DNA of 64,000 bases from positions 21,230 to 85,229 of the forward strand of contig CAYQEE010000006.1 of assembly GCA_964416445.1 (NCBI GenBank), given 5' to 3'. How positions within the stretch are numbered: position 1 is the stretch's first letter; every line of letters starts with the position of its first letter. The translations under genes were made by a program, and so were the position numbers. Source of the DNA: an uncultured Gammaproteobacteria bacterium (GTDB lineage: Bacteria; Patescibacteriota; Microgenomatia; Levybacterales; UBA12049). This document shows, in pieces, positions 1 through 40,630 of the stretch. The notes beneath the pieces were generated by a model that saw nothing but the letters and a program-made list of their open reading frames with translations, had not been told where the DNA came from and made no database searches.

Positions 1-777
1 GGTAAAGTTAACGGTCAATGGAGCTGATGCTGTACTGGTGTTATCGGCAGTTAAACTTGTACAGATGGGATTCTGTGCTGTTGGTGTGGGTGTTGTTCCT
101 CCCCCTCCACCGCCTCCGCCAGGTGTAACTGATGGAGCATTGGTAGGTGTTGGTGTGTTGGTTGGGGTCACAGCACCGGTAGGTGTTCCATTTAATGTTG
201 TCGTAATAATAACATTCACCGGGGCAGGAGCTGCTGAAAGAACATTTTCACTTGGTTGGTCGGTTGATGCAAGGGACAAAACTTGGGTTCCATTAGCCAC
301 TCCGATAGGTGTTCCGGTCGTAGGATCAGTTGCAGCGATAGCGTTAAAATTTAAATTAGCTATCGTTACTGGACTTCCTGCTCCTTGTATCGCTTTTGTC
401 ACTTCGGTACCTATGGACATTGTGATTGATTCCGTGCATGCAGTACCAGTACATTGATTATACGTTGGTCCCTCTAAGGTAACAGGGAAAACACTGGTGT
501 TCGGAACGATTCCTTGGCTTGTTGGAGTAATTTTAGAATTATCATAGGAAATAATCAGTTTGACAAATGAGACTTGATTTTGTCCTGGATCGAGTAATAC
601 ATTTAAACTAAATGTTGATCCTATACCTACTGGTCCGCTTAATGTTGAAAAAGAAAGATTTGTTGATGCAGCTGCTTTGGATCGATTGTTTGTTTGTTTC
701 CCAATGAGAAATATCGTAAGTGGTACCGCGACAAGGATAACAACAATAAATCCAAGTAATAAAACTTTTTTATTCAT
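1..777 (-). CDS. Partial N-terminal part of a secreted or surface protein (gene runs off the left edge). It has an N-terminal signal/TM helix, a beta-rich cohesin-like segment, and Pro/Thr- and poly-Gly-rich linkers.
   Basis: The minus-strand ATG is at 775-777 and the frame stays open to position 1. The N-terminus MNKKVLLLGFIVVILVAVPLTIFLIGKQ is hydrophobic. A G8 run and TPTNTPTPT linkers follow. The 38-457 plus ORF in the track is the antisense reading of this gene (its PPPPPPPP is the reverse of the GGGGGGGG run). Confidence 0.55.
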   Translation of the reverse strand, partial: MNKKVLLLGFIVVILVAVPLTIFLIGKQTNNRSKAAASTNLSFSTLSGPVGIGSTFSLNVLLDPGQNQVSFVKLIISYDNSKITPTSQGIVPNTSVFPVTLEGPTYNQCTGTACTESITMSIGTEVTKAIQGAGSPVTIANLNFNAIAATDPTTGTPIGVANGTQVLSLASTDQPSENVLSAAPAPVNVIITTTLNGTPTGAVTPTNTPTPTNAPSVTPGGGGGGGGTTPTPTAQNPICTSLTADNTSTASAPLTVNFT

Positions 778-4286: not shown

Positions 4287-4883
4287 ATGATTCCAAAGCT
4301 TTTATTGAATGAGAAAAGTTTTACGATAACTCCGAACGATTTGCCTCTTTTTATTCATGGTGAAGTCCAATCTGGCGCATCTTATTTTAGCATAATAACG
4401 TTCGCATCGCTTGTCCTTCAGGGAGAATCGATTCTTTTTTATAGTGCATTTTTCAGAGGACTCGAAGCATTACAACAATTACTTTCTCAAGAAAAGATTG
4501 CAGTAGTGAGGGAAAATGAAGAGAGTGTAGTGATAAAAAAGAGAAAAATTCTTGCTGTGCAGAGTGGTGATGAACCACTGTTGATGCAAATGTTGACATC
4601 ATGCAAAAATACTCAACGGATTATTTGTATCAAAAATATTGAGACACTTACCAAAAATATTACTCCCTTTATTTCTCATCATAAATTCTTTATTATTTCT
4701 GGAGATATTGAGCGATACCGATACAAACAGGCGTTACTCAACGAACCATTTACGACAAAAATATTATTTTCTCACCTTCCTACATTATTGGTACAACTAC
4801 CAGCTCTTGATAGATTTCAAGCGATTTTCTTAGGTGCAACTACCAGTGGCGTTACACAAGCAACTAATCAAAAACAACACTAA
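4287..4883 (+). CDS. Hypothetical protein, co-transcribed with the GT1 gene.
   Basis: The 198-aa ORF starts 6 nt after the GT1 stop. I recognise no family. Confidence 0.45.
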   Translation: MIPKLLLNEKSFTITPNDLPLFIHGEVQSGASYFSIITFASLVLQGESILFYSAFFRGLEALQQLLSQEKIAVVRENEESVVIKKRKILAVQSGDEPLLMQMLTSCKNTQRIICIKNIETLTKNITPFISHHKFFIISGDIERYRYKQALLNEPFTTKILFSHLPTLLVQLPALDRFQAIFLGATTSGVTQATNQKQH

Positions 4884-5387
4884 TAGGTCGTACAAAAGTA
4901 CGTAATAACCAAGTATATATCTCTACCTCGTTCCTACTAAACAGACCAACAAGTACTGCAAGAATGATCATTTTTCATGATCTCTTTTTTTGGTCAGCAT
5001 GGCAAACGGAAATTTTTTCTCAAGAAGGAGAGCCTATAAAATTTTCAAATTCTCCTGTATAATTGCAAACAAGTTTATACAAAAAATCCTAGTAATCATA
5101 ATTTTCTATAAATAGAAGAACAAAATGCAGATTGGCACAAGCGAAAGTTATTACTTATTTAATTGAGAATAGATACAAAATTTACATCGGTGGATAAATT
5201 ATCAGAATCATGAAAATTGAAATGTGACAATATCATAATCTAACGAAAGGATAAATATTGATAAATTTAATAATAGCCAGTATGATGTAATTGCTGTTTA
5301 CATAGACTCAAAAGACAAAATTATTTTGGTTGATGCTTTCAAAGTTAGAGCAAGAAGTTTGTCCATACGATATTGAATGAGTTATAT

Positions 5388-5474
5388 GGAGAGGTCGCAT
5401 AGTGGTCGAGTGCAGAAGTTTACTAAACTTCCAATCCGTAAGGATTCGTGGGTTCGAATCCCACCCTCTCCGCA
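5388..5474 (+). tRNA. Type II tRNA (long variable arm), Ser-like with a G73 discriminator. The nominal anticodon is ACU.
   Basis: The cloverleaf is read directly from the sequence. Acceptor stem GGAGAGG/CCTCTCC. D-arm GCAT-AGTGGTCGA-GTGC. Anticodon stem GAAGT/ACTTC with loop TTACTAA. Variable arm AATCC-GTAA-GGATT. T-arm GTGGG-TTCGAAT-CCCAC. CCA is not encoded. Confidence 0.8.
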
Positions 5475-39364: not shown

Positions 39365-40306
39365 TTAGGAATGAGGAAAATCTTCTGCCAGTTCTGCTTT
39401 TTTCCCACGAAGAGGTTTTGTAATATTGTAGATAGCAATAAGAAGGACAATGATTCCCAAGATCTGTGTGATTGAGAGTGATTTGTGAAAATAGAAATAA
39501 TCAGTAAGAACTGCTGCAGCAGGCCAGGCAAGTTCACAAAGTGTCGTAATGCGAGCAGGAGTGCGTTTCAGTCCATAATAATAGAAACAGACGGCAACAA
39601 GTCCTGTTGAAAAAGTAATTGCAAGTAACGTAAGCCACTGTGAAGAAGTGATTGCAAACAAACTGCTTGTTTGGTGTTGTCCAAAAACAAAAAGAAGTGC
39701 AAAAATAGGAGCGATGTAATATCGTAAAGCCGTCGCAGTAAGTGTTGAAACTTTATTTAATACATATTTACTAATAGCGGTAGATGCACCCCACATGAAT
39801 CCTGCTGCTAATGCAAATCCTGCTGCAATAATGGTTCCTTGTCCTGTTGAAAAATTCACTCGCATGTCTTTAAAAGTAACAAAATAAACAGCTAGTAATG
39901 CCAGTGCAGCCCACCAGAAAAATTGTCTGGTAATTTTTTCTTTGAGCAATATAGCAGCAGTTGCAATTGCCCATATCGGTTGCAATTGCTGTTGTAATAG
40001 CACAACGACAGAATATTGAATATAGTTAATTTTTTGTAATGCAGCAGTATATAAAATAGTACCAAGTGCTCCAGAAAAAATAGCAACAAGAGAAATTGCT
40101 AGCCATTCTCTGCTAGTCATTTTTTTCAAATCTTTCATCCAAAGGAAGCTGAAGAAAATAAGGACCAGTGCTCCAACTGCATGTTCATAAAAAACAATTA
40201 CTGCAGGAGGTAAAGAATAAAGGGTAATTCGTAAAAATCCATCAAAGTTCCACAATAGTGCGGTAATAATAATAAAGAGTGGTCCAAATTGTAATATTTT
40301 TTTCAT
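39365..40306 (-). CDS. EamA/DMT-family transporter.
   Basis: The protein has 10 TM helices and is about 314 aa from MKKILQF. Confidence 0.7.
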   Translation of the reverse strand: MKKILQFGPLFIIITALLWNFDGFLRITLYSLPPAVIVFYEHAVGALVLIFFSFLWMKDLKKMTSREWLAISLVAIFSGALGTILYTAALQKINYIQYSVVVLLQQQLQPIWAIATAAILLKEKITRQFFWWAALALLAVYFVTFKDMRVNFSTGQGTIIAAGFALAAGFMWGASTAISKYVLNKVSTLTATALRYYIAPIFALLFVFGQHQTSSLFAITSSQWLTLLAITFSTGLVAVCFYYYGLKRTPARITTLCELAWPAAAVLTDYFYFHKSLSITQILGIIVLLIAIYNITKPLRGKKAELAEDFPHS

Positions 40307-40630
40307 AAAAAAACACCCATTTCGGGGTGCACATAAACATATTCTCATCAATTATGATAAGAATCCATTCTTTCTTTTATCCCGACTTTACGGTCGCTAC
40401 TAGATATTCACTAGTTCCTGCAAGAAATCTTGCTCGTAGAGTTTACTACCGATTTTGACTTACACAAAACCCCGAAAGAATATCTAGATAGTAATAGCTT
40501 ATGATAAAAAAGTCAAGATGAAATGAAAGATAGACAAGAAAGAATGAGAAGAAAAGGTCAAAAAAAGTCTTCCTGTTATTTTTCCCATTGTTCATGCGAA
40601 ATTGCGGCACACTAAAAATAATATAGGTTA

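Follow-up and report, generated by a model that had tools for sequence, protein, structure and literature searches.

We analysed a contiguous stretch of 64,000 nucleotides, hereafter termed the window, in which a single tRNA gene was identified. ARAGORN called this gene at 5388–5473 on the plus strand as tRNA-Ser with the anticodon ACT (ACU in the RNA), and the Rfam model RF00005 covered 5388–5472 with a score of 54.8 bits (gathering score 29; E = 4.9e-9), matching model positions 1–71 of 71 with all four stems paired and no mismatched pair. With a score above the gathering threshold and a complete cloverleaf, the gene falls into the Rfam tRNA family. The elements of the gene and of its upstream flank are listed below, read from the sequence where no program is named.

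5388–5472, plus strand: tRNA-Ser(ACU) gene, type II, 85 nt up to the discriminator G73 (ARAGORN and Rfam)
5388–5394 / 5465–5471, plus strand: acceptor stem GGAGAGG/CCTCTCC, 7 bp
Plus strand: D stem GCAT/GTGC
5415–5431, plus strand: anticodon arm GAAGT-TTACTAA-ACTTC, flanked by A26 (5414) and C44 (5432)
5415–5419 / 5427–5431, plus strand: anticodon stem GAAGT/ACTTC
5420–5426, plus strand: anticodon loop TTACTAA
5422–5424, plus strand: anticodon A34-C35-T36 (ARAGORN: anticodon at tRNA position 35)
5432–5447, plus strand: long variable arm of the Ser type, C-AATCC-GTAA-GGATT-C, with AATCC-GTAA-GGATT at 5433–5446
Plus strand: T arm GTGGG-TTCGAAT-CCCAC
5472, plus strand: discriminator G73
4287–4883, plus strand: ORF of 198 aa without a Pfam domain, between a glycosyltransferase gene and the tRNA
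5258–5286, plus strand: promoter-like TTGATA-17-TATGAT, 10 of 12 positions, a consensus match only

Sequence, ARAGORN and Rfam bear out every element of the type II serine anatomy described in an earlier note on this DNA, and ARAGORN, the check it had suggested, likewise reads the anticodon as ACT and the tRNA as Ser. Its statement that no other tRNA lies in the window is confirmed by both programs. The span of 5388–5474 given there is correct at its start and 2 nt too long at its end, as G73 lies at 5472 and the gene does not encode CCA, the bases following G73 being CAAAC. Within the anticodon loop U33 and A37 are canonical, with A37 following U36 in the usual context for t6A. Bacterial SerRS substrates are characterized by a long variable arm, G73 and the pairs G1-C72/G2-C71/A3-U70, the anticodon being no identity element. 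All of these features are present in the window tRNA and invariant in the 24 aligned sequences of the family described below. By sequence criteria it is a Ser-type tRNA that would be expected to be charged by SerRS, and the altered identity considered in the earlier note is unsupported because all Ser features are retained.

Upstream of the tRNA lie groES-groEL, the glycosyltransferase gene and the orphan 198-aa ORF, and downstream three ORFs without Pfam matches, an EamA transporter, GNATs and a UDG. Farther on follow an F-type ATPase operon, metG, tatD, an FMN riboswitch, hrcA-grpE-dnaK-dnaJ and clpB, and the window also contains nusA-infB, pnp, RNase J, ftsK and a sortase gene. The region around the tRNA is ordinary core chromosome and not an island. 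Of the proposed position at the edge of a block of unknown genes, the three ORFs without Pfam matches stand, but these are interleaved with the EamA transporter within a core region lacking an island. Among 5.8 billion proteins the 198-aa ORF retrieved only itself and one match of 27% identity, and the exact GroEL protein of the window is not on record. The promoter-like sequence is located about 100 nt upstream of the tRNA inside the 504-nt non-coding gap at 4884–5387; promoter-like sites numbered 7 compared with 4.0 ± 2.0 in shuffles, which constitutes weak evidence. Two further observations concern other parts of the window. The FMN riboswitch (40365–40483, minus strand; Rfam 83.4 bits) immediately precedes a gene for an EamA-family transporter (39365–40351, minus strand), which suggests a RibN-like riboflavin importer under FMN control; the host is probably devoid of riboflavin synthesis. 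An ORF at 38–457 (plus strand), whose translation is poly-Pro and Val/Gly-rich and of low complexity, is unlikely to be a genuine gene, or else lies antisense to one that runs off the window start.

To place the tRNA among its relatives, we searched 185,579 species genomes with a pattern made up of the anticodon arm (R at position 34), a type II spacing and then a T loop; this returned 25 loci, 12 of which have A34. These 12 all share the 5′ half of the window gene, GGAGAGGTCGCATAGTGGYCKAGTGC-AGAAGTTTACTAAACTTCC, and originate from Candidatus Gottesmanbacteria, Levyibacteriota and Microgenomates MAGs as well as from MAGs titled Pseudomonadales or Gammaproteobacteria. A metagenome scan with the D arm and the anticodon arm fixed and positions 26, 34 and 44 left free returned 26 contigs, 24 with A34 (35–49% GC) and two with G34. 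The latter represent a different, Chloroflexota-like tRNA, as evidenced by their GC content of 66–72% and by G26/T44. Membership of the family was defined by the backbone GGAGAGGTCGCATAGTGGYCKAGTGC and the arm GAAGTTTACTAAACTTC with A34, together with covariation in the variable arm and the T stem; including the window, the family comprises 36 loci, each called Ser(ACU) by ARAGORN, with 25 distinct sequences. The question raised earlier, whether A34 is conserved in related genomes, can thus be answered positively for 36 of the 36 loci with the window backbone.

The alignment took in 24 of the 25 distinct sequences. In their cloverleaf 99.7% of the cells are paired and 13 of 26 pairs exhibit compensatory changes, and all five pairs of the variable arm change in this manner across the family. 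The observed value for pairing and covariation was reached by none of 500 shuffles, and no slid register came close. Since the search patterns required the anticodon arm, its invariance within the family is not evidence, and CPR ACU tRNAs with other arms would be missed. The window tRNA itself matches the family definition, being 91–94% identical to the members L149, L155, L109, L142 and L146 and aligning without gaps outside the variable loop; its variable arm most resembles those of L109, L142 and L146. Based on these sequence comparisons, the window gene most likely belongs to a vertically inherited, conserved paralogue family of the CPR Microgenomates group, and the alignments indicate that this Ser(ACU) family is clade-wide and under purifying selection.

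Several family loci (L108, L109, L118, L121, L125, L127, L129, L130, L131) stem from TPA MAGs titled uncultured Pseudomonadales or Gammaproteobacteria. As L129 is syntenic with Gottesmanbacteria loci, with proteins of 60–86% identity, and as L108, L121 and L130 resemble named CPR genomes in having Arg(GCG), these titles are unreliable and the public taxonomy labels of these MAGs appear to be wrong. L108 furthermore has a long-tag tmRNA like the one in the Amesbacteria locus L117. In five loci a serine-biosynthesis gene was observed just downstream of tRNA-Ser(ACU) (L132, 4571–6490; L140, 4082–6001; L136, 554–1516; L139, 7107–8069; L145, 438–1400), encoding either a fusion of HAD, 2-hydroxyacid dehydrogenase and ACT domains (SerB-SerA-like) or a 2-hydroxyacid dehydrogenase alone (SerA-like). 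This adjacency may be a coincidence or a functional link.

A tRNA-Ser(GCU) gene is located within ~1–2 kb of the ACU gene in 21 of the 36 loci, usually along with Ser(UGA), and the loci without a nearby GCU gene are mostly short contigs. The Gottesmanbacteria-like group exhibits a conserved order of smpB, a comFC-like gene and thiamin pyrophosphokinase, followed by the tRNAs GCU, UGA and ACU. The GCU tRNAs are only 65–77% identical to the neighbouring ACU tRNAs, whereas ACU tRNAs from different organisms share 85% on average, indicating that the two are old paralogues. With a distinct GCU gene adjoining in 21 loci, the ACU tRNA of the relatives is an extra isoacceptor and not a replacement, and the notion of ACU standing in for GCU fails there. 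The search for a GCU isoacceptor elsewhere, as advised in the earlier note, hence succeeded in the relatives, but the window itself holds only the ACU gene, with no second tRNA beside it within 64 kb. Likewise, L109, L142 and L146 show ACU alone, without GCU, in the stretches examined. A GCU gene would be expected elsewhere in the window genome, since AGC codons are not avoided and call for a G34 reader. In L147, the GCU and ACU tRNAs (453–540 and 6–91, respectively) have the same acceptor stem, D arm and T arm and entirely different anticodon arms, which hints at gene conversion between the paralogues sparing the anticodon arm.

We next considered the codons that such a tRNA would serve. AGU accounts for 74% of the AGY codons in the window and AGC for 26% (84 codons), the latter compared with a C share of 17–24% in the other two-codon NNY boxes. 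Correspondingly, the AGU share of 0.74 stands against T shares of 0.76–0.83 in the other two-codon boxes, and in the CPR loci the values are 0.57 and 0.57–0.79. Neither in the window nor in the CPR or viral loci is AGU enriched over the remaining NNY boxes, so that there is no codon-usage signature of AGU demand; this is the weak point of AGU-specific decoding, for which the case from demand is a qualitative one. The ORFs are intact under table 11 with normal stop usage. AGA is common in the window (168 codons) and is found at the invariant GroEL arginines R35 and R282 (LGPKG-R-NV and GDR-R-K), showing that the code is standard; on these grounds a recoding of AGA to Ser via an ICU anticodon was rejected. 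Nor does the gene have the properties of a recoding or suppressor tRNA, as ACU pairs with AGU, which already encodes Ser. Because AGA is frequent, occupies invariant Arg sites and can be paired by inosine, an I34 reader would be hazardous, placing Ser at Arg codons. CGA makes up 238 of the 496 CGN codons in the window, a high usage with which a UCG tRNA fits.

The state of A34 was assessed through the arginine tRNAs. tRNA-Arg(GCG) is carried by 16 CPR loci (L108, L110, L111, L114, L117, L119, L120, L121, L123, L126, L130, L139, L148, L149, L152, L154), none of which has ACG, and every CPR locus with an Arg tRNA for the CGN box has Arg(GCG), sometimes plus CCG. Three Bacillota/Clostridiales loci from the same scan have Arg(ACG). 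The CPR data agree with Shulgina & Eddy 2021 (PMC8629427), according to whom CPR appear to be without tRNA-Arg(ACG), using GCG, UCG and CCG, and some deep-branching bacteria do without wobble inosine. Mollicutes replaced Arg(ACG) by GCG plus UCG after the loss of tadA (Yokobori et al. 2013, PMC3711424). A regular-expression search for the CDA-type deaminase motif gave no match in 371 kb, which is too little sequence to prove the absence of TadA. The window loop also deviates from the U33-A34-C35-G36 loop of TadA substrates, having U at position 36. In E. coli, ACU on an orthogonal tRNA reassigned AGU at 9.4% with AGC and AGA below detection and no inosine at ACU (Schmitt et al. 2024, PMC11066159). 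Overexpression of a Ser-tRNA(ACU) improved E. coli growth, with a low estimated likelihood of mistranslation, and A-to-I modification in E. coli was reported for the only two-codon-box ANN tRNA subjected to sequencing (Raval et al. 2026, bioRxiv 10.64898/2026.05.15.725136).

The same anticodon is found in uncultured phages. An arm-specific scan of IMG/VR gave 103 matches, 49 of them with A34 and an anticodon arm identical to that of the window. An arm-free scan for TTACTAA, type II spacing and a T loop added at least 113 new loci, comprising at least 101 ARAGORN Ser(ACU) calls with about 40 anticodon-stem variants on many backbones. Together, at least about 150 viral contigs carry Ser(ACU). 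Ser(GCU) was present in the same viral locus in none of the 49 arm-specific cases and, among the matches listed for the arm-free scan, in 1 of 101. Two settings were apparent: contigs of 27–31% GC with ACU among only 1–3 tRNAs, together with Thr(UGU) and Asn(GUU), and large tRNA arrays in which ACU is next to Ser(UGA). Some arrays with Ser(ACU) also hold Arg(ACG), implying phage hosts with TadA. The sampled contigs encode ribonucleotide reductase and PHROG families. BLAST revealed no close match among GenBank phages to the window tRNA or to two viral ACU types, the best for the window tRNA being a Ser(UGA) of S-H9-1. ACU seems to have arisen repeatedly, and as the phage backbones differ from the CPR backbone, the window gene is not phage-derived.

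Taken together, we consider it probable that the window gene encodes a functional seryl-tRNA of a CPR paralogue family whose unmodified A34 makes it an AGU-specific Watson–Crick decoder beside the GCU tRNA. The "unusual decoding solution" listed as one option in the earlier note is the one towards which the evidence points. What we infer here are charging, expression, an unmodified A34, the absence of TadA, AGU-only decoding and a GCU gene elsewhere in the window genome. The tRNA would be charged with serine because SerRS identifies its substrates by long variable arm and acceptor stem, without reading the anticodon. A34 would be left unmodified, as the lineage probably does not use the TadA/inosine system. 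ACU would then decode AGU, the majority AGY codon, by three Watson–Crick pairs including A34:U3, the GCU paralogue would cover AGC and, by wobble, AGU, and AGA/AGG would be left to tRNA-Arg species. Synthetases of the Asn, Asp, His, Tyr, Phe and Cys systems rely partly on G34 for recognition. An anticodon-blind SerRS could thus have made AGY the two-codon box in which an ANN tRNA could become fixed.

Several alternatives were weighed against AGU-specific decoding. An error of sequencing or assembly might be suspected, as might a pseudogene that recently arose by a G34A change or import of the tRNA on a prophage or genomic island, given that A34 is rare outside Arg, that downstream ORFs lack Pfam matches and that the gene lies at a contig end in other assemblies. 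The identical gene, including A34, was recovered in three Logan assemblies from the separate runs SRR12266071, SRR12266072 and SRR12266074, which rules out a mistake in base calling or consensus building. Each of the three Logan contigs ends 1–5 nt past the tRNA 3′ end (L001, 3487–3572; L002, 2654–2739; L003, 1416–1501). The T arm and the 3′ strand of the acceptor stem are common to other Ser tRNAs, e.g. in L111 and L124, and such common 3′ k-mers would branch the de Bruijn graph, so that the contig ends probably reflect a graph branch and not a variable junction. A34 in all 36 family members, along with the covarying stems of the family and the fully paired stems of the window gene, speaks against the sequencing error and the degenerate copy put forward earlier as well as against a pseudogene. 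For an island or prophage using the tRNA as attB, which was rejected, the window shows no second copy of the tRNA 3′ end with up to 3 mismatches, no integrase or phage domains by Pfam in any sizeable ORF and no compositional shift, GC being flat across the site; furthermore, its backbone is CPR-specific and unlike those of the phage ACU tRNAs. We therefore regard this group of explanations as effectively refuted. Conversion of A34 to inosine, with ICU as a broad AGY reader for AGU, AGC and weakly AGA, would be in line with nearly all known A34 tRNAs being converted to I34, with the A-to-I modification of the two-codon-box ANN tRNA in E. coli (Raval 2026) and with U33-A34-C35 being common to the window loop and tRNA-Arg(ACG). 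However, CPR loci have Arg(GCG) and never ACG, as the literature agrees (PMC8629427), position 36 is U and not G, and E. coli TadA left ACU undeaminated (PMC11066159). Since ICU would misincorporate Ser at the AGA codons of invariant arginines and a separate GCU tRNA covers AGC in the relatives, with the lack of a CDA-type motif in 371 kb as a weak further indication, we hold inosine conversion to be clearly unlikely.

Loss of GCU from the window genome would leave ACU as the sole AGY decoder, reading AGC via A:C wobble, a reading to which the single tRNA in 64 kb and the solitary ACU genes in the examined stretches of the closest relatives L109, L142 and L146 lend themselves. It appears very unlikely, as the 84 AGC codons show no avoidance, ACU read AGC below detection in E. 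coli (PMC11066159), and GCU is close by in 21 of 36 family loci, the rest being mostly short contigs. The tRNA might also be conserved for a role outside bulk decoding, as an aminoacyl donor for cell-wall or other non-ribosomal transfer, a regulatory ligand, or a spare copy escaping an anticodon nuclease directed at tRNA-Ser(GCU). Such a role would account for the redundancy of ACU with GCU for AGU and for the missing AGU enrichment, and it would fit the serA or serB-serA fusion genes adjoining the tRNA in five loci as well as the very frequent Ser(ACU) without GCU in phages, which often carry nuclease-resistant tRNA variants. We judge it unlikely nonetheless: the T arm, D arm and acceptor stem have fully canonical elongator features, the conserved feature is the anticodon itself, the tRNAs that accompany it in phages read codons ending in A or U in the ordinary way (Thr UGU, Asn GUU, Arg UCU, Glu UUC), and the neighbourhood revealed neither a toxin nor a Fem-type transferase nor a T-box.

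Comparison with known systems sets AGU-specific decoding by the CPR tRNA in context. Canonical tRNA-Ser(GCU), represented by E. coli serV and the co-resident GCU genes of L108, L116, L120, L122 and L126, is likewise type II with a long variable arm and G73, and has in common with the ACU family G1-C72/G2-C71/A3-U70, the loop YU-NCU-AA and a serine identity independent of the anticodon. The ACU family differs from it by A34 instead of G34, A or U at position 26 and C at 44, and would be expected to read AGU only, whereas tRNA-Ser(GCU) reads AGC and AGU. The anticodon stem GAAGU/ACUUC also occurs in G34 tRNAs of Saccharibacteria, Nealsonbacteria and some Bacillota. With the tRNA-Arg(ACG)/TadA system the window tRNA shares A34-C35 after U33, differing from tRNA-Arg(ACG) by U rather than G at position 36 and by U at position 32. 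Non-Arg A34 tRNAs retained within a clade are known from Mycoplasma capricolum, whose tRNA-Thr(AGU) has an unmodified A34, and from Lactobacillales with tRNA-Leu(AAG) (PMC3711424; Raval 2026). Like CPR ACU, these are ANN tRNAs kept across a clade in AT-rich genomes. In contrast, they serve four-codon boxes, where superwobble is harmless, and replaced the GNN isoacceptor, whereas CPR ACU belongs to a split box (AGY Ser / AGR Arg) with its GNN partner retained. The engineered ACU tRNAs, the Ser-tRNA in E. coli (Raval 2026) and the M. jannaschii orthogonal tRNA (Schmitt 2024), have the same anticodon and were AGU-specific, unmodified, and tolerated or beneficial; these are laboratory constructs, in contrast to the natural and conserved CPR ACU. 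Phage Ser(ACU) from IMG/VR has the loop UUACUAA as in the window, in 49 cases within an identical anticodon arm, but differs in the acceptor, D, variable and T arms and has ACU in place of GCU.

In the survey of Raval et al. 2026 (bioRxiv 10.64898/2026.05.15.725136), two-codon-box ANN tRNAs were only sporadic and always accompanied by GNN; being based on GtRNAdb, it was without CPR MAGs or uncultured phages. Our search of open-access and bioRxiv literature brought up no account of a tRNA-Ser(ACU) occurring naturally in bacteria or phages. The ACU tRNA is most likely a natural exception to the bacterial avoidance of such tRNAs in split codon boxes. More tentatively, in a proposal that we hold to be near evenly balanced while leaning slightly against it, the CPR family may be the first two-codon-box ANN tRNA kept clade-wide, reading AGU only beside GCU and enabled by the loss of TadA/inosine together with an anticodon-blind SerRS, with phages having adopted the same solution independently many times in replacement of GCU. 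If true, this would overturn the current picture of merely sporadic ANN tRNAs in split boxes and would provide a natural precedent for separate tRNAs reading AGU and AGC. For asking why bacteria almost never use anticodons starting with A, CPR Ser(ACU) offers a natural system: whether an unmodified A34 reads U-ending codons with high fidelity, whether synthetase anticodon recognition or TadA limits the spread of ANN tRNAs, and whether a split box can be divided once more by assigning AGU and AGC to separate tRNAs, which is of interest for sense-codon reassignment. For annotators, Ser(ACT) calls in Patescibacteria or phage contigs should not be treated as errors or pseudogenes.

The phage arrays contain other unusual tRNAs as well. 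Additional ANN tRNAs were observed in the IMG/VR arrays L005, L018, L030, L040, L047, L056, L062, L064, L099 and L101 and in a second viral set, often Thr(AGU), along with Leu(AAG), Ile(AAU), Asn(AUU), His(AUG) and Gly(ACC), and phages seem to carry ANN tRNAs far more commonly than bacterial genomes do. Furthermore, the IMG/VR arrays L007, L041, L082, L084 and L094 hold a tRNA with the anticodon CUA, labelled 'Pyl' by ARAGORN, which is likely an amber suppressor of stop-codon-recoded phages.
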